Assembly (NCBI GenBank): GCA_965116025.1
Contig: OZ220480.1
Span: 1,184,001 to 1,248,000 of the forward strand
Direction: 5' to 3'
DNA from: an uncultured candidatus Porisulfidus sp.
GTDB lineage: Bacteria; Pseudomonadota; Gammaproteobacteria; Poriferisulfidales; Poriferisulfidaceae
DNA length: 64,000 bases
Shown here: positions 52,515 to 60,987 of the stretch, in pieces
Layout: the number at the start of each line of letters is the position of its first letter
Position numbering within the stretch: the first letter of the stretch is position 1
Position numbers and translations under genes: made by a program
The notes under the pieces: model-generated
What the model was told of the DNA's origin: nothing
What the model saw: only the letters and a program-made list of their open reading frames with translations
Database searches by the model: none

Positions 52515-55500
52515 TCAGAAGCGAACCTTCAGCAGGACGCTCGCGCCGTAATCATGATTGTCGCCGTCCGACGCCGCGTAGTGAGCGTCCCCCGAGAGCG
52601 TCGACTCTCCCTTCTCATCCAAGACCATCACGCCCCCAACGCCCAATCGCGCCCAAGTCGACTCCACCTCCGAGCGAAGCCGCGACCCCGACGCCATGAC
52701 CTTCCGGCTCTCCGAGAACTCGCGCTCCACGTCCAATGAGGCGTACGTCTGGCCATTCTCCAGCAGCGCCCCAACCCGCGCCCGCACGCTGTCCTCCGAG
52801 CGGAACGACACCCGACCGCTCCCAGTGACACCCGACACGTCGTCAAAGCCGTCGATGTCCACCCAAGTCCACGTCAGTCCCCCGCGCGGAACCAGCGCGA
52901 AGCCGTCCCTCTCCATCCGCCTGCCGACCTCCACGCCGATCGCGTGACCCTCTCCATCCAACCCGGACGCCACCATCCCCCGAGTCTCCGAGCTCAGGTC
53001 GACATCCTCGAACCGCGTGTACGAGAGCTCCCCGTCCGCGTACCAGCCGTCCTCGCCCCGCCAAGTCGCCGAGGCGCCCACGCCCACGCCCGAGACCTCG
53101 ATCTTCCCGCCGCGCGCGACGTCCGCCTCGCCGTCCCGGTAATGCGCGCTCACGCCCAGCGTCACGCCCGGCAGATCCGTGGGAACGGCGAAGCCCGTCT
53201 CCACGCCCCAGCGCTCGAAGTCCCAGGATAGCGCGCGACCCGCATCGTCCATCTCGGTCGTGGATATATCCGCTTCCCGCTCGCCGTCGCTCGCCAAAAC
53301 CCGCGCCCACGCGCCCCCGCCATCTCGCGTCGCCGACAGCCGCGCCTGACGACCGTCGGAGCCGCTCATCTCCAGCAGCACCGACGGCAGCGCCTCGTAC
53401 ACCCGAGCCCGGGCGTGGTACGTCCGGCTGATTTCCCTCTCCACGCCCGCCTTGAACTGGTGCCCTCCCGTGATCGACCTCAGCGTGACCATCCGCTCGA
53501 ACACCGCGTCATACACCCCATGCGTCCCCGTCTTACCGGACGTCGCCTTCACCGCGTCCCCCACAGCGATCGCCTTCGTCATGCCCGCCGTCGACTCGCG
53601 CTGGAAGACGTTCGGCGTTTTATCGCCACTATTCAGGAATTTCCCCGTGATGAACGCGACCTGCCCATGCGCGTTCTCCTTCAGGGTGACATGCAGCGCC
53701 TTGTCCGCCCTCACCGCGGTCCCCGACGTCGCGCCGATCTCCGCCTTCGGCCCGATCACCAGCGTCCCGCCGTTCACCATCCGAACGCCGGCGTGCTCGC
53801 CGGCGCCGCCCATCACCTTGCCGTTGATGGTGACCGTCTGGTCGTAGTGACCCTTCCGGGCGTGGTCGGACGCGAACGTCCGCATGCCTTTGACATGCAC
53901 TCCGTCCTTCTTGGCTCGGATCGTCGCCATCTCCCCCACCGTGACGCTGATCTTCCCGGCTTTCGGCGCGTCCTCGTCCTCGTAGGCGGTGGCGGTCTCC
54001 GCGTAGACCCCATACCCATCCGCCGTGATCGCTCCGCCTGAAACATCGATCATGATCGGGATGATCGTCTCAATGTCCGGTATCTCCTCCGCGTCGTTCA
54101 AGTCTCTCACATAGGCGAGAATCCCGTCGCCCTTCGACGTGATGTCCGCCTTCGACTCGATCTCGATCTTCCCGATCTTGGCCTCGTAGGTGGAGGGGGC
54201 TTGAGAGTCGGCCGCCGTCTCGTCGGAAGCCGCCTGGGGCTCCGAGCCCCCATGAATGGCGAGAATGCCGGCGGTCCGGGGCTTCAGGTCCGCCAGCTCC
54301 GTCTTGTGATCCTCCGTGAGCGAGAAGAAGGCGTTAGGCTGGTCGCCCGCGACGATCTCTCCCGCCAGATGCTTCGCGACCACGTCGCCCTGACTGATAT
54401 GCAAAGCGAGGATCCCCGAGCCTTTCGCGTGGATGAAACCCTCGTTGGTGACCATGAGATCAATCTCGTTAGTCGCGTCTTCGGTCTCGACGAACACGCC
54501 GTTCTCGCCGACCGGCGTCTCCGCGGTCCCGATCCGCGCGCCGGACTCGATGTCCACTCGGGTCGTTCCCTCATCGACTTGGTTGCGAACGTACACGCCA
54601 TGGCCGCCAGCCTGAGCGATCACGCCCGCCAGGTCGATTTCGATATCGCCGCCCGCATGATTGGAATAAACATGGATCCCGTGAAGATCCTCCGCCTCCG
54701 TCTTGATCGTTCCCCCGGTCACCTTGACCGTGACCGGAACCACCGAATCGTCGTCCCCTCTCGTGTCGATATAAATGCCATTACTGCGGACGTCAATGTC
54801 GCCGCTCGAGACGATGGCGATCTCGCTGCTCGGAGACGCGGCGGTGCCCATGGTCGAATCCTGATGGAACACGTAAATGCCATGAAAATTGTAGTAATCG
54901 ATATCGCCGTCATACAGCGTGGCCTCTCCGCTCGGGGTGAGCGTTCGCGCGTACAAAGGCCGCTGCCTCAGGCTCCGGATCGTCCCGTGGTTCGTGACGC
55001 GGATGTCCCCTCCCTCTCCACTATTGGACTGATCGACTAAAATCCCCTTACTGGTCACGCTGCCCTTCGCCGTCTCGACGGCGACGTCTCCAGACCCCGC
55101 GTGGTACACGTAGATTCCTCGGTAATACCCGTAGATCTCGCCCCGGTTCACGATCAACATGTCGCCCTCGGCGGACGCGTCTCTGTAATACGCCCACACC
55201 CCATAACGCCCCACCGGAATCTCCTCGGTGCCGATCCGCGCATCAGCCTCGATCGCGATCTCGATCTTGTCCGTTCTCGAGTCCGAGCCGGCTCCGTCGT
55301 TCTCGACGACGATCCCGTAGTTTCTGCTGCCCCGCCGATACTGGGGAGCGATGAAGGTCGCGCTATACTGTTGGCCACCAGAAGAGTACGTGCCCGCCGT
55401 CGTCGTCCACCCCGCCTCGTTCACGATCCTCGCCTTGCCTTCTAGATTGACCGTCAGCTCCCCGCGACCGACCACGGCGATCCCGGAATTTCGGCCTCGG

Positions 55501-55881
55501 GTAAGATCGCTGGGAGAGGTGCCGGGATTCTTGGGAGGAAGGAACGACTTGATGGTCGTCATCTCCCCGGAAGGCCTCACGGTCAGCGCCAGACCGCCCG
55601 TCTGACCCGTGTACTCGATGGGATTGGCATCGGCGTTATTAGTCCCGCCGTAGGTCGCGGCATCGCAGGTGACTGTTTTGGCGGCGCTGACGGCGCCGCA
55701 CTCGTCCGCCTCGGCGGAATGCGGAATCAGCGGAATGGAGAGAACGGCCGTCAAACCGGCCAGAACGGTCAGGAAACGAGGGCTATGCCCCCCCCCCCCC
55801 CCCCCCCCCTATGAGGGAAGACGACGAGGCGCCGCGAAACGCGGCGCGAATGGCATTGGAAGCGGAAAGGATCTTCTTCAT
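52515..55881 (-). CDS. Autotransporter (type Va adhesin-like); out of frame by one base at a poly-G tract in the signal-peptide region
   Basis: Beta-helix-like passenger repeats (GI.V...G.I), C-terminal barrel ending LKVRF; ATG 55881 reads MKKILS...LIGGGGGGGA*, whereas G21 would continue HSPRFLTVLAGLTAVLSIPLIPHSAEA into the 1079-aa ORF. Confidence 0.85.
55788..55809. repeat. C22 (G22 on the coding strand) homopolymer
   Basis: 22 consecutive C counted in the sequence. Confidence 0.95.
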
Positions 55882-56252
55882 TTTGGTTCTTATCTTGAGG
55901 TTCAAGCGAGCGCGATTATACAGCACGATCTTGCCGGCGCGCGTCATGCCGCAGGCGTGGACGCTCGCTTGCCCGGGTCCACGCCCAGATGGGCGATGGC
56001 GAGTTGACGTGGAGTCCTTTTCATAAGGGTCGTCCCGCTTTCGCGATGGGTTCGTCGTGCGCTCATCGTGCCCGCTCAAGGCCGAACAGGGAAGCGGGGC
56101 GAACCATCCCATCAACGATATCGTGGAGCGCGCTCCTTTCTTCCCGATCTCCGTAAATCGCGCATCTGTGAAACATCCACTGAAGAGGTATGGCGAATGG
56201 GGTAGAATGGATTTCCAACCCCGATAATAATCACAACTAAGGGGGTGATCCA

Positions 56253-58163
56253 ATGGAGGGAATCCTCGAGATCAGGGACGGGTGCAACACTCCGGAGCAG
56301 TTGCTTCGCAGCCTCGCCTTCGCTCGTTACCTGAAAATCTACAAGGAGGAGTTTTTGGCGGACCTTCTGCGTCGCGACCATAATCTCGATGAGGCCCAGC
56401 ACAAGGCGGAGCTGATTCGCGGCATCACGTTGCGGGACATCACCGAGGTTCTGGACTCCAGTCATTTCTCGCCCGAGGCCCTGGAGCGCGCCCGCGCGGT
56501 CGTCAAGTTTCTGGACGGCGGCTTCCACCACTTCCGCAACGCGAGCTACTCGCGCTTGGTGCGGCTGCAGAACGAGGTGGTCAGCTCGGGCACGGAAAGC
56601 CAGAGCACGATCAAGGACAAGGTCACGGAGAAGGCCGCCCAGTTGAACGACCTGATTCTGGATACGCGTCGCCGGTTGCTGTCTCAGGTGGGGCTGGGCT
56701 ATGGCGTGCGCCGCACGCCGGGCATGGACGCCTCCCCGAACGTGACGGCCGGCGAGATTTCTGGCCACTACTGCAACATCCCCGCCACGTACAGCGTCCT
56801 GTGCCATGTTCCCCTGACCATGGCGGCGGATATCCGCACGGGCGTGGACTACCGCACGCCGGCCAACCGGCGCGCCTATCCGTTTTTCGAGCTGGACCAT
56901 AACCCGTTGCATCTGGAGCGTTTCGACCCGGATGCCTGGGTATCGGTCCCGTTGCGGGTCGGGCGCTGGCTGATCGTCGCGTACATTCACAAGTCGCGCG
57001 GCTGCATCGAGATGGAGCCGGGATTGCTGAACCTGTTTCCTTTCGCTGGCGTCGAGCGTGATTTTCCGGCGATGCGCCCCGACGGGCTGTTCTTCTTCGG
57101 GGATCCGAACGGGACGTTCGGTGAGGATCTTGGCTACTACTGGGACGAGGACGACCAGTTGCTGATCGGCCTGGTCCCGCAACACGACGAATACAAGTAT
57201 TTCGGCTATTGCAAAAAACCGATTCTGACCCTGCACAACGTGCTCGCGATTCGCGCTGGCGACGTTCCGTTGCACTGCGGATGCACCCGCTACATCGTGG
57301 GCTTCGAGGGCGACGATCCGTACGTTTCGGAAATGCTGATCAAGGCGGACGACATGGGGCGGGTCGTGCTGGAGCGCGCCAATGGCGCGGCGTTTCGCCG
57401 GCCGATCTTCTACGGCACCGAGATCGGGGCGTTCGCGTGTCTGGACGGTTTCAGCGAGCAGGCGAAGCTGGCCATGGAAGGCCGGGAAGTTGGCTACAAC
57501 AACCATATGGGCTCGAACGCGCGGCAGGTCGTGCCGGTGGCCGAGGAGTCCGAGGTGGCGCTGGGCAGCGACCTAGACGTGTTGCTGTATATGAACAACT
57601 TCGACATCAAGGAAGAGGGCGAATCCTGCATCGATGTCGATATTCCGGTGTCCGAGGCGATCCGGCATTTTCGGAAAGGCGAGCGGGTCGCCGCGGGCAG
57701 CACCCAGACGCACCGTGGCAAGAAGGAGGCCAGCTACTGGGCCAACCCGTTCCCGACGCTGATGAGCAACGAGGGCGACGTGCTGCACCCCGATCTATAC
57801 GAACGTTTCAGCGAGACCGAGGCGTCATTCATGAAGGATGTCGAGGAGCTGGTGGAGCGCGGAGAGATGTATCTGGGTGTGGCCTACAGCCAGTTGATGG
57901 CCGGAGTCTACGAGAAGGTCGAGGACGAGGATGTCGCGCGATGTGGCTTCCGCGACCGCGAGGAGATTGAGCAGGTCGCGCCGGAGCGCCTCGCGCGCGA
58001 GCTGATCCAGATGGTCAAGCGGATCGCGGCGCGGAAGCGCGACCGTTTGGGTGGCGAGGCCAAGGAAATCGACGTGACGGTGGCTTTGGTCGGCGACAGC
58101 CGCACCGGCAAGTCGGAGACCGCGGAGAAGCTGGAAGGCGTTCTTGGGCTGACGCTGATCTGA
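56253..58163 (+). CDS. Phosphoenolpyruvate carboxykinase-like protein with a C-terminally placed P-loop
   Basis: YFGYCKK, LTLHN, PLH, DDMG, GTEIGAF, NAR, ANPF motifs; Walker A GDSRTGKS only in the last 25 residues; AAGGGGGTGA RBS. Confidence 0.7.
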   Translation: MEGILEIRDGCNTPEQLLRSLAFARYLKIYKEEFLADLLRRDHNLDEAQHKAELIRGITLRDITEVLDSSHFSPEALERARAVVKFLDGGFHHFRNASYSRLVRLQNEVVSSGTESQSTIKDKVTEKAAQLNDLILDTRRRLLSQVGLGYGVRRTPGMDASPNVTAGEISGHYCNIPATYSVLCHVPLTMAADIRTGVDYRTPANRRAYPFFELDHNPLHLERFDPDAWVSVPLRVGRWLIVAYIHKSRGCIEMEPGLLNLFPFAGVERDFPAMRPDGLFFFGDPNGTFGEDLGYYWDEDDQLLIGLVPQHDEYKYFGYCKKPILTLHNVLAIRAGDVPLHCGCTRYIVGFEGDDPYVSEMLIKADDMGRVVLERANGAAFRRPIFYGTEIGAFACLDGFSEQAKLAMEGREVGYNNHMGSNARQVVPVAEESEVALGSDLDVLLYMNNFDIKEEGESCIDVDIPVSEAIRHFRKGERVAAGSTQTHRGKKEASYWANPFPTLMSNEGDVLHPDLYERFSETEASFMKDVEELVERGEMYLGVAYSQLMAGVYEKVEDEDVARCGFRDREEIEQVAPERLARELIQMVKRIAARKRDRLGGEAKEIDVTVALVGDSRTGKSETAEKLEGVLGLTLI

Positions 58164-58230
58164 TTGGCCTTCCCGAAATACTCGCGCGGTCCGGCGAGAG
58201 AGGCTCTAGAGCCCGCGAAAGCCGGGGGCG

Positions 58231-60987
58231 CTACATCCGCTCGATGCGCTCGCGCTGTTCCAGAAGCTGCGTTCGCGCGGTTTCCAGCTCCTCCAGCCGG
58301 TCTCGCTCTTTTCGCACGATCTCCTCTGGGGCTCGCGCGAGGAATCGCTCGTTGTCCAGTTTGCCGCGGGCCGCTCCGAGGGATCGCTCCAACTTTTTCA
58401 GTTCCCGACCAAGCCGGGCCAGCTCGGCCTCGCGGTCGATGAGGCCAGCCAGCGGGATCAGTAGTCGCATGCTTCCGACCAGCGCCGTGGCGGCTTCCGG
58501 CGCCGTCTCGCCGGGCTCCATCCAGCAAATCGACTCCGGGCGCGCGAGACTCTGGACCCAGTCCCGGGTCGCTTCAAGGCGCGCTTGGTCCCGTGCCGTC
58601 CAGTTCTCCAGAAGCACGGGCACCGGCCGTCCCGGGGCGATATCCATCTCCGCGCGGATCCGGCGAATTCCGCCGATGATCTCCCTCAGCCAGCGCATCG
58701 TCTCGAACGTCTCGGGGTCCTCATCGGCGCCGCGCGCGTCGGGCCAGCGGCGAGTCAGAAGCATATCGTCCCCGTCGTTTTCGCGGCGCGGGAGCTGGCG
58801 GTGCAACTCTTCGGTGATGAACGGCATGAACGGGTGCAGCAGGCGCAGGATCCGGTCGAACGTCGCGAGCAGAACGCGCAGGGTGGACTGCGCGGCGCCG
58901 TCCGGCGAGTCCTCGTTGAGAGTCGCCTTCGCGAGTTCCAGATACCAGTCGCAGAAGTCGCGCCACACGAAATCGTACAGCGTTTTCGCGGCCAAGTCGA
59001 AGCGATAGGATTCGAGGCGCTCGGTGACTTCCCGGGCGACTTGCCGGGAGCGGGCGGCGATCCAGCGGTCGACCAGGCTCGGCTCGGCCATGGGCGCGGA
59101 TTCGTCCAGCCGGTCGGCGCGCGTCCGCGCGAAACGCGCCGCGTTCCAGATTTTGTTGCAGAAATTCCGATAGCCCAGCACGCGTGGCAACTCGAAGCGC
59201 ACGTCGCGGCCAAGCGTCGCCTGGGTAGCGAAGCAAAAGCGCAGCGCGTCGGTCCCGCACGTCGGAAATCCTTCCGGAAACTCCTGGCTGGTCGCCCGCT
59301 CGATCGGGCGCGCTCGCCTAGGGTCCATCAGGTCGGCGACGCGCTTGCGGACCAGCTCTTCCGGCCCGATCCCGTCGATGACGTCAATCGGGTCGATGGT
59401 GTTGCCTTTCGACTTCGACATCTTCTGTCCGCGCGCGTCGCGCACCAGGCCGTGCACGTAAACGGCTCGGAACGGGACCTCGTCCAAGAAGTGCAGGCCC
59501 ATCATGATCATGCGGGCCACCCAGAAGAAGATGATGTCGAATCCCGTGACCAGCGCGTCGGTCGGATAGAAACGCTCCAAAGCCGGATCCTTTCCAGGCC
59601 AGCCGAGCGTCGAGAACGGCCACAAAGCCGAGGAGAACCAGGTGTCCAGCACGTCCTCGTCCTGGCGCAACGGCGCGTCGGGCGGGAGCCCGTGCTTTTC
59701 CCGAACTTCTCGCTCGCTTCGCCCCACGAGCGGCGCGTCATCGGCTCCGTACCAGGCGGGAATTCGGTGTCCCCACCACAACTGACGACTGACGCACCAG
59801 TCCTCGATGCGGTCCATCCACTCATAGTAGGTCTTGCTCCAGTTCTCGGGAACGAAGCGGACGCGGCCATCGCGGACCGCGGCCACGGCCCGGTCAGCCA
59901 GCGGGCGGACGCGGACGAACCACTGATCGGTCAGATAGGGCTCGACCACGGCGCCGCTTCGATCCCCGCGCGGAATGGTCAGGGCGTGCTCTTCCACGCC
60001 CGCTAGCAACCCTCGCGCATCGAGATCCTCCAGGACTCTCTCTCTCGCGCGCTCGCGGCTAAGTCCTCGGTACGCCTCGGGCGCCTCCTCTCCGATCCGC
60101 GCGTCGTCAGTGAGAATGTTGATCCTCGGAAGGTCGTGCCGCAGTCCGACTTGGTAGTCGTTGAAATCGTGCGCCGGCGTGATCTTCACGCACCCGGTGC
60201 CGAACTCCGGATCCACGCGCTCGTCCGCCACGACCGGGATCTCCCGCTCCGCCAGCGGCAGGAGCGCGGAACGCCCGATCCACTTTCGATAGCGGGGATC
60301 GCCGGGATGGACCGCCACCGCGGTGTCGCCCAGCATGGTTTCCGGGCGGGTGGTGGCGACCTCCAGCATCTCTTCGGAGCCGATGATCGGGTAACGCAGG
60401 CGCCACAGTCGTCCTCGCTCCTCCGAGGCGACCACCTCAAGGTCCGACAGGGCGGTGCGCAACGCCGGGTCCCAGTTGACCAGTCGCTCGCCACGGTAGA
60501 CCAGTCCTCGCTCGTGCAGTCGCACGAACGCCTCGCGCACCGCCTCGGACATGCCCCGGTCCATGGTGAATCGTTCGCGCGACCAGTCGACCGAGGCTCC
60601 CATTCGGCGGAGCTGCCGGGTGATGTTTCCTCCAGATTCGCGCTTCCAGGCCCAGACCTCCTCGACGAAGGCGTCCCGACCGAGGTCCCGACGCGTCCGC
60701 CCCTCGCGCTCCAGCTTGCGCTCGACCACCATCTGGGTGGCGATGCCGGCGTGGTCGGTCCCAGGTTGCCACAGGACGGCCTGACCCCGCATCCTCCGCC
60801 AGCGAGTCAGGATGTCCATCAGGGTGTCCTGGAACGCGTGCCCCATGTGCAGGGTTCCGGTCACGTTCGGGGGCGGGATCATGATGCAGAAGGGCTCGCC
60901 TTCCGCTCCCGGCGCGAAGGAGCCGCTCTCTTCCCAGCGTCGCCGCCAGAAAGCCTCGATTCGTTCGGGGTCGTAGCTTTTGTCCAT
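58231..60987 (-). CDS. valS: Valine--tRNA ligase
   Basis: [43 protein letters not shown]-terminal coiled coil. Confidence 0.98.

Follow-up and report, generated by a model that had tools for sequence, protein, structure and literature searches.

In ATP-dependent phosphoenolpyruvate carboxykinase (ATP-PEPCK; PckA; PF01293; PDB codes 2pc9 and 1aq2), the Walker-A or kinase-1a loop (GLSGTGKTT in PckA) lies between a histidine and an acidic Asp-Asp pair (DD). Here we analyse a gene located at 56253..58163 on the + strand of a 64,000-nucleotide stretch from an uncultured candidatus Porisulfidus sp. (assembly GCA_965116025.1, contig OZ220480.1, positions 1,184,001 to 1,248,000; the whole stretch is referred to as the window). 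Its product, 636 residues plus a stop codon and termed P0001 here, carries its Walker-A loop (GDSRTGKSE) at the C-terminus instead; the codon of residue n begins at 56253+3(n-1). P0001 shares with ATP-PEPCK the two-domain fold, a Walker-A loop, an acidic pair and a stand-alone gene, as well as counterparts of PckA Tyr207, Lys212, Lys213, His232, Asn331 and Arg333. It differs from ATP-PEPCK in lacking a Pfam match, in its identity of 11-13%, in approximately 168 extra N-terminal residues, and in both the sequence and the position of the loop. With respect to PF01293 itself, P0001 falls below the sequence threshold and its kinase-1a loop is out of position. P0001 represents a known fold in a new topological variant, and its enzyme family is widespread but unannotated. 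We put at roughly three in four the probability that it belongs to an unnamed, widely conserved PEPCK-fold family in which the Walker-A unit has moved to the C-terminus and the site is rebuilt around it.

The closest relatives with the loop in its usual place form a second set of proteins, family A (approximately 550-600 residues), distinguished here from the tail-P-loop proteins such as P0001 (family B). Homology between the two families extends over the core and the N-terminal extension, with phmmer matches of ~500 residues at ~30% identity and E 1e-37 and weaker. They share the motifs YFGYxKK, LPxH, DDMG, GTExGAF and NAR. In contrast to family B, family A has the canonical order of His strand, P-loop unit and DD strand, its loop reads GDSGAGKSE, and the chain ends at the helix that is extended in family B. 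Family A is uncharacterised and is automatically named 'phosphoenolpyruvate carboxykinase' or 'EcfA2' by some sources.

Displacement of a Walker-A motif has precedents of another kind. In the circularly permuted GTPases of the YlqF/YawG type, the Walker-A motif is out of its usual order with respect to the other nucleotide-binding motifs, as it is in P0001. These GTPases represent a circular permutation of a P-loop nucleoside triphosphatase domain, whereas in P0001 one beta-alpha unit has moved within a PEPCK-like fold, leaving the N-terminus unchanged.

Non-circular permutations are documented but rare. The accessible text on the HK97-like capsid fold of phage BPP-1 describes a non-circular permutation of a kind that 'rarely occurs in nature', in which structural elements keep their places in space while being encoded in a different, non-circular order (PMC3863775). 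The BPP-1 case concerns a capsid protein and topologies without detectable sequence similarity (PMC3863775), in contrast to the clear homology and the moved catalytic motif seen here. DNA methyltransferases are also cited as examples in the accessible part of a further source (PMC10085705). The kinase classification groups PEPCK with HPr kinase (HprK) and, as far as its accessible text goes, mentions circular permutation alone, in general terms (PMC1079889). A literature search, supplementary files excluded, found neither a relocated PEPCK P-loop nor such a permutation in the PEPCK/HprK group; the same search found nothing on DUF4914 or on an uncharacterised PEPCK-like family, and none of the literature found on Porisulfidus concerned this gene. 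The family described here offers an example from nature, family-wide and traceable in sequence, of a catalytic Walker-A beta-alpha unit that has left its presumed ancestral place and is supplied from a chain terminus. It is a protein rearrangement of a rare kind, conserved across many sulfur-oxidising marine bacteria. Because both chain orders are still present in related families, it could be possible to retrace step by step how a non-circular permutation came about. There is also a consequence for annotation: models that depend on motif order miss family B, and the related family A is named inconsistently (PEPCK or EcfA2).

Two chain orders in related families

Of 8000 candidates scored in a word-indexed search with P0001, 383 were homologues at E≤1e-3. 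The 120 best ones are approximately 614-678 residues in length, match the query with 96-100% coverage and 61-91% identity, and are called 'hypothetical' wherever any source gives a name. An exhaustive phmmer search of 1.84 billion representatives returned 238 proteins at E≤1e-3, with a second tier of ~550-600 residues and ~30% identity whose matches end near query residue 520. Conservation of the C-terminal unit is strict: the motif ALxGDSRTGKSETAEK is invariant in 21/21 diverse homologues, and G614, D615, S616, R617, G619, K620, S621 and E622 are invariant in 36/36 sequences with identity down to ~40%.

We classified by architecture the 195 proteins of at least 500 residues among 270 collected relatives. 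The P-loop is present only in the last 45 residues of 126 proteins and only internally in 53, where GDSGAGKSE lies between LP[LI]H and DDMG; none has it in both places. The earlier note had mentioned exactly such internal loops in related proteins of ~590 residues, and this is true of family A. The remaining proteins comprise one scored as having neither loop (P0122, with W in place of G) and 15 that fall outside the regular expression. Spacing from His to DD follows the same division: it is 27-29 residues when the loop is in the tail (126 proteins) and mostly 47-53, with 51 as the typical value, when the loop is internal (53 proteins); two internal-type rows at 77-79 arise because a different DD-like motif was picked. 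For P0001, the spacing between His341 and Asp366 is 25 codons and no P-loop occurs within residues 342-365, as claimed in the earlier note, whose positions for YFGYCKK, His, DDMG, GTEIGAF, NAR and GDSRTGKS are all correct. Looser rules gave 126 tail-type and 59 internal-type proteins, leaving 12 of at least 450 residues: P0122, which is tail-type, five with variants of the internal-loop motif, and six family-A proteins with degenerate His, P-loop and DD motifs. No intermediates with both P-loops or with neither were found among the 195 proteins, the oddities being degenerate internal types or a translation-code artefact.

To relate the tail to the internal unit, we used a hidden Markov model (HMM) of family A built solely from the 59 internal-type proteins. 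P0001 is matched in three pieces: HMM columns 12-341 correspond to residues 5-344 (131.4 bits), columns 377-511 to residues 356-502 (78.3 bits), and columns 351-372 to residues 607-628 (13.0 bits, conditional E 1.9e-6). Columns 342-376 go unmatched at the turn formed by residues 352-356 (57306..57320, +), an 'excision scar' at the point that the strand/P-loop/helix unit occupies in relatives. A domain linking the tail to the P-loop columns was obtained for 126/126 family-B proteins, compared with 0/126 controls in which the last 40 residues were shuffled. The homologous segments therefore occur in a changed, non-circular order (HMM 12-341, 377-511, 351-372), and the pieces together with the shuffle control indicate, at the level of sequence, that one strand/P-loop/helix unit has been relocated with the N-terminus unchanged. 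The non-circular permutation put forward in the earlier note, consisting of a missing internal unit and a homologous tail, is thus upheld.

A maximum-likelihood tree (quick search, LG+G4, unrooted) was computed from the core without the P-loop segments for 20 family-B and 40 family-A rows. A single branch splits family B from family A, with a Shimodaira-Hasegawa-like approximate likelihood ratio test (SH-aLRT) value of 100. Family A is mainly found in Bacillota and Bacteroidota, according to Atlas labels. Since PEPCKs and family A share the internal P-loop position, family B would be the derived form.

Some individual relatives deviate from either pattern. P0122 (637 residues, on a 2,531-bp contig) has W at every position where family B has an invariant glycine (WDSRTWKSE), and its overall composition is 5.5% W and 2.4% G. 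It looks like the product of an organism with TGA=Gly read with TGA=Trp, in which case the tail-loop family would also occur in a recoded lineage. P0198, P0220, P0238, P0240, P0249 and P0250 have family-A architecture with degenerate motifs, such as His replaced by Asn, Ala or Arg, a broken GK[ST] or a lost DD; they are likely inactive paralogues. The very long P0269 (2170 residues) includes a stretch resembling family A, with PIH at 1526 and GDSGAGKS at 1547, which suggests a fusion form.

Predicted fold of P0001

An AlphaFold2 (AF2) model of P0001, computed from a 36-sequence family-B alignment, has a mean predicted local distance difference test score (pLDDT) of 84.9 and a predicted template-modelling score (pTM) of 0.85. 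A Foldseek search of this model against the PDB gave 107 hits at E≤1e-3; those listed are all PEPCKs, with ATP-type enzymes first, followed by GTP-type. The best match was 2pc9_B (E 4.9e-11), and E. coli 6v2m scored 2.1e-10. Structural alignment by VIA yielded Z 13.8 and a root-mean-square deviation (rmsd) of 3.3-4.1 Å over 329-345 aligned residues, spanning model residues 169-595 and PEPCK residues ~2-459, and thus covering both PEPCK domains. Alignment to GTP- and pyrophosphate (PPi)-dependent PEPCKs gave Z 12.0-12.5. The predicted model of P0001 therefore has the two-domain PEPCK fold, in agreement with the fold the earlier note had assumed for the core. Most VIA alignments start at model residues ~166-185, with a few rows at 100-104, and the tail is also mostly outside the aligned range.

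The model for the family-A member P0148 (46-sequence alignment) reached a pLDDT of 92.2, and aligned to PEPCK with Z 18.8 and rmsd 3.3 Å over 356 residues. Its elements follow in the order His strand 341-352, strand 357-363, P-loop, helix 370-378 and DD strand 383-399, with the last helix at 558-573. In P0001, the two-domain core occupies residues 169-598 (56757..58046, +), as delimited by VIA, Foldseek and hhalign, and the relocated unit follows at residues 599-636 (58047..58160, +). AF2 places a strand at 605-613, a loop at 614-619 and a helix at 620-631 (block pLDDT 94/87/83/68) after a long helix, 569-598 (57957..58046, +; DSSP H569-598, block pLDDT 83-96). This helix leads back to the active-site sheet in the model; hhalign pairs it with the PckA 449-464 region, and family A ends at the equivalent helix. 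The strand/P-loop/helix that the earlier note had described after the expected final helix is thus recovered both in the AF2/DSSP assignment and by HMM columns 351-372. In nucleotide terms, the tail strand lies at 58065-58091, the P-loop GDSRTGKS (residues 614-621) at 58092-58115 and the helix at 58110-58145, all on the + strand. The C-terminus reads ...VTVALVGDSRTGKSETAEKLEGVLGLTLI*, and the chain stops 15 residues past the P-loop.

Predicted placement of the C-terminal unit

We predicted the complex of core (residues 160-598) and tail (599-636) as separate chains, both provided with alignment rows, in the presence of ATP and Mg. The interface score ipSAE was 0.94 in three runs, while the best of three controls reached 0.02; contacts agreed by at least 91% between runs and the partner pLDDT was at least 78. 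The mark applied to such predictions was reached by 58/80 solved complexes and 2/110 mismatched pairs, counts that are only rough here because our own alignment and small molecules were used. The pass could partly reflect likeness to PEPCK structures, though none solved has this chain order.

In the complex model, tail residues 608-612 pair antiparallel with residues 347-342 of the His strand (i+j ~955, with G614 beside His341). Tail strand 609-613 runs parallel to 442-446, the lowest-error pairs being 442:609, 443:610, 444:611, 445:612 and 446:613, and the core-tail interface also takes in residues 363-367 (K-A-D-D). Converted to family-A numbering, the register of tail and His strand corresponds to a sum of 707-708, compared with ~709 implied by the family-A hairpin. 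The predicted register hence agrees within 1-2 residues with the family-A hairpin of His strand and P-loop strand (DSSP E341-352, E357-363). DSSP of the AF2 model shows the His-DD hairpin that is left after removal of the unit as E338-352 and E355-375. The predicted topology is self-consistent: in family A the His strand runs up, the P-loop strand down, and the DD strand follows a helix and runs down, and the tail strand of family B (down) refills the vacant slot. Both the predicted contacts and the register agree with a moved segment that holds its original three-dimensional position. The proposal made in the earlier note, that the tail re-inserts at the active site, finds support in these predictions, in which the tail strand packs along the His strand and adjoins the DD segment.

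These models suggest the following arrangement. The Walker-A (kinase-1a) unit, in which a beta-strand leads through the loop GDSRTGKSE into the first part of a helix, would have been lost from its place between the strand with the metal-binding His and the strand with the acidic DD, and would be supplied instead by the last ~35 residues of the same chain, presumably docking in cis. The long helix 569-598 would return the chain to the sheet, where tail strand 605-613 would insert between the His strand (342-347), its antiparallel partner, and strand 441-446 (LDVLLY; 57573..57590, +), its parallel partner, which aligns to PckA ~355-360. This would place the P-loop beside His341, Lys321/322, Asp366/367 and Arg424, and so rebuild the phosphoryl-transfer site, with the order of elements changed along the chain and unchanged in the sheet. 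The relocated form would derive from the internal-loop form, which is also the arrangement of PEPCK.

The same contacts could be made in trans, with the P-loop unit of one subunit filling the slot of its neighbour in a domain-swapped dimer or oligomer, and activity depending on assembly. The tail sits after a 30-residue helix and a short linker, and even as a chain of its own it is docked with confidence (ipSAE 0.94), so that the interface does not need covalent continuity. We nevertheless consider an exchange between subunits rather unlikely, as the monomer AF2 model packs the tail (block pLDDT 83-94, pTM 0.85) and cis insertion is therefore sterically possible.

Catalytic residues and alternative readings

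Residue equivalences were derived by hhalign against a profile of 28 sequences, made up of E. coli K-12 pck together with 27 diverse ATP-PEPCKs taken from genomes sampled across the phylum; the phylum sample was used because a homologue search with E. coli PckA gave only proteins of 86-93% identity, too shallow for a profile. Family A aligned to this profile with Prob 90.3 and E 1.5e-6 over 286 columns, and family B with Prob 43 and E 2.5e-4 over 239 columns. When family B was aligned to the E. coli sequence alone, the alignment ended right after His232. PckA Y207, K212, K213, H232, N331 and R333 correspond to P0001 Y316, K321, K322, H341, N422 and R424, each of which is invariant in 36/36 sequences; the same six residues map to invariant residues of family A (45-46 of 46). 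P0001 accordingly retains by hhalign the metal and substrate residues Tyr207, Lys212, Lys213, His232 and Arg333. Three of these positions lie in the YFGYCKK motif (residues 316-322; 57198..57218, +), His341 (57273-57275) lies on the His strand (338-352, DSSP E338-352; VPLHCGCTRYIVGFE; 57264..57308, +), and N422-A423-R424 (57516..57524, +) is aligned to PckA Asn331-Thr-Arg333. The GTEIGAF motif (388-394; 57414..57434, +) falls near PckA EGGCYAK, with G392 pairing with Gly284 and invariant in 36/36.

The kinase-1a region behaves differently in the two families. PckA Gly248, Ser250, Gly251, Gly253, Lys254 and Thr255 correspond to invariant residues of family A, whereas in family B the kinase-1a columns (248-256) fall on the non-conserved residues 352-362, and no P-loop is found between His and DD. 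The acidic pair D366-D367 of KADDMG (57348..57353, +; DDMG begins at 57348) is kinase-2-like and invariant in 36/36. The earlier note had matched its motifs to PckA Tyr207, Lys212/213, His232, Arg333 and Asp268/269: the first five positions all fall on invariant residues, but Asp268/269 were not paired with D366/D367 by hhalign. The equivalence of the two acidic pairs rests on motif context, namely the position after a hydrophobic strand, because hhalign mis-registered the pair.

Several observations weigh against P0001 being a PEPCK-fold enzyme with a rebuilt Walker-A site. No Pfam or NCBIfam family matches P0001 at E≤1, and its identity to PEPCK structures is just 11-13%. Asp268/269 of PckA were paired by hhalign with residues other than the invariant D366/D367, and for PckA Arg65, which binds oxaloacetate/phosphoenolpyruvate (PEP), the greedy hhalign partners are of low confidence and inconsistent between families A and B; R207 (36/36 invariant) is a candidate counterpart. 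The placement of the tail is drawn from the confidence of two predictors and a contact list, as opposed to a solved structure, and the family-A hairpin register from DSSP boundaries only. Finally, loop residue Arg617 (36/36) replaces a Gly that is invariant in PEPCK and family A (46/46), a change that could mean altered or lost nucleotide binding; the earlier note had proposed that this Arg may alter the use of the phosphoryl donor.

The last of these points leads to a second alternative, in which the family is a catalytically altered or regulatory PEPCK-fold protein and the tail P-loop acts as a nucleotide sensor, latch or pseudo-substrate. In addition to the substitution at Arg617, the degenerate family-A members (P0198, P0220, P0238, P0240, P0249 and P0250) indicate that non-catalytic derivatives exist in the superfamily, and metabolic complementarity is not seen within the order of the window's genome (see below). 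Against this, all mapped catalytic residues and GDSRTGKSE are invariant in 36/36 sequences, whose identity falls to ~40%, as one would expect of an active site, and the gene is kept in ~1-Mb genomes. Such an altered or regulatory role is in our view improbable.

An HprK/P-like protein kinase, as opposed to a small-molecule carboxykinase, is a third alternative. The loop pattern GDSxxGKSE resembles the HprK P-loop, and an Atlas lead scored 0.86. A search of PDB sequences with the family-A profile gave generic P-loop matches only, with HprK at E 0.16 and PEPCK 1j3b at E 0.41, while phmmer with P0001 against the PDB found nothing except a chance match to glutathione S-transferase (E 1.6). Hpr_kinase_C (PF07475) had no match in P0001 and a faint one, at E 0.087, in one family-A member only. 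For comparison, PF01293 gave sub-threshold matches in 8/10 relatives scanned (7/8 of the internal-loop ones), the best at 24.1 bits; neither P0001 nor any scanned relative reached the gathering score of 26.5 bits. The models align to both PEPCK domains (residues ~2-459/470), the counterparts of Tyr207, Lys212/213 and Arg333, substrate and metal residues of PEPCK, are retained, and the PF07475 C-terminal domain was found nowhere in the window's own genome, which hence has no detectable HprK. A protein kinase of this type is very improbable on these grounds.

Occurrence of the gene

The gene was found on contigs of three public sequencing runs (X1, X2 and X3), all of which bridge the core-tail junction without joints. 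The contig from X1, possibly the source sample, is 2,815 bp long and identical over 56023-58500. That from X2 (1,468 bp) spans 57370-58500 and shows 1 difference, and that from X3 (3,395 bp) spans 56142-58500 and belongs to a diverged strain. When species-representative genomes were scanned, 193/254 candidate loci were confirmed. Misassembly, frameshift fusion or a chance 3' motif is refuted, no support for it having been found: the tail is present in 126/126 homologues from many independent assemblies and at the 193 confirmed loci, the run contigs cross the junction unbroken, and shuffled tails gave 0/126. The check for misassembly that the earlier note had proposed can be considered settled in favour of a genuine locus.

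The nearest named loci belong to Candidatus Porisulfidus metagenome-assembled genomes (MAGs), at 81-91% identity. Other carriers are labelled Piscirickettsiaceae, Thiohalomonadaceae, Thiotrichales, Thiohalophilus, Candidatus Venteria and Methylophaga, along with a few betaproteobacterial labels; Thiohalomonas denitrificans is an example of a carrier in culture. Three MAG records with close homologues (L004, L076 and L081) are labelled Nitrospira sp. (91% identity to P0001), Bordetella parapertussis and Dichelobacter nodosus; these labels are probably binning or naming errors.

We surveyed the window's order across 49 genomes of at least 80% completeness. The gene is present in 14/14 other genomes of its own family and in 12/14 of a second family with 0.9-1.2-Mb genomes, and is not found in the single genome of a third family (0/1) or in a fourth, sister family (0/19). 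It is single-copy in its own genome.

Metabolic context and possible function

The combination of PEPCK fold, invariant PEPCK-type catalytic set and conserved Walker-A unit leads us to infer that P0001 is catalytically active, as a nucleotide-dependent phosphotransferase whose substrate is a PEP/oxaloacetate-like carboxylate. Retention in ~1-Mb genomes of marine sulfur oxidisers, together with the full PEPCK-like catalytic set, suggests that the family is probably a central-metabolism enzyme lacking an assignment. Interconversion of PEP and oxaloacetate is the leading candidate reaction, albeit a tentative one, held at well below even odds.

Several results on gene content favour a true PEPCK role. 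The window's genome consists of one contig of 2.0 Mb, estimated as 99.39% complete. It contains no ATP-PEPCK, GTP-PEPCK, malic enzyme or PEP synthase/pyruvate phosphate dikinase (PPDK), and control genomes were positive for each. Likewise, no PYC_OADA carboxyltransferase domain (pyruvate carboxylase/oxaloacetate decarboxylase) and no large subunit of ribulose-1,5-bisphosphate carboxylase/oxygenase were found in this genome, with positive controls in both cases. Two full-length PEP carboxylase genes are present in the same genome, L083 (G000:C1:903094-905832) and L084 (G000:C1:864097-866661). Among 50 carrier genomes, which are MAGs whose completeness was not established and whose kin are not independent, ATP-PEPCK occurs in 2/50 and GTP-PEPCK in 0/50, compared with a PEPCK in 35/61 of the phylum sample.

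A function as PEPCK is opposed by a number of results. ATP-PEPCK stands beside the gene in those 2/50 carrier genomes, and PEP synthase/PPDK in 35/50. Within the window's order, ATP-PEPCK and PPDK_N were each found in 0/49 genomes, with or without the gene, and the only GTP-PEPCK (1/49) is in the lone genome of the third family, itself without the gene. The sister family, in which 19/19 genomes do not carry the gene, is also without ATP-PEPCK, GTP-PEPCK and PEP synthase/PPDK. As the whole order is devoid of ATP-PEPCK and PPDK_N whether the gene is carried or not, we rejected gap-filling as a decisive argument for a PEPCK role.

No conserved operon partner was found in family B or in family A, which also speaks against this function. 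Of 80 family-B loci, 76 had the target open reading frame (ORF) recognised, and the best neighbour cluster, valyl-tRNA synthetase, occurs in 19/80; it lies directly downstream of the family-B gene, on the opposite strand, in 11 loci. For family A, the best neighbour cluster among 80 metagenome loci reached 12/80. Recurrent family-A neighbours are an ABC transporter, an acyltransferase, an RNase H-like protein, a metallo-beta-lactamase (MBL) and an AsnC regulator, without a common theme.

A more specific and rather doubtful possibility is that the family constitutes the hitherto unrecognised PEP/oxaloacetate-interconverting enzyme of sulfur oxidisers of the SUP05/Porisulfidus type, in which no other path leading to PEP from pyruvate or C4 acids is seen, and that its C-terminal P-loop is detachable, with docking in cis or between subunits gating activity. 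If true, such a gated plug-in P-loop would be a natural split-active-site switch in an enzyme of central metabolism.

Gene features and surroundings

A Shine-Dalgarno-like sequence, AAGGGGGTGA (56239..56248, +), read directly from the DNA, lies 4 nt 5' of the ATG. The ATG start is supported because the N-terminus MEGILEIRDGC is kept across homologues. Residues 1-168 (56253..56756, +) form a mostly helical N-terminal extension that is common to family A and outside most PEPCK structural alignments, as judged from the family-A HMM alignment, which begins at residue 5, and from DSSP of the AF2 model.

Rfam gave no match at E≤1 on the leader (55700-56300). A scan for promoters and terminators was uninformative, with 1 promoter-like site within the ORF and 0 terminators, and the 4 sequencing runs listed include no RNA dataset from which expression could be read. 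Upstream of the gene, an intergenic, dispersed repeat of ~95 bp occupies window positions 56020-56114, with 10 copies in the genome at 86-100% identity. Its depth is 5-12 times that of its flanks in the public-run contigs, and it has no Rfam match. The divergent upstream neighbour (52515-55754, -) is a 1079-residue ORF with a repetitive, Gly/Thr/Asp-rich, passenger-like region, and its C-terminal region resembles an autotransporter by eye.

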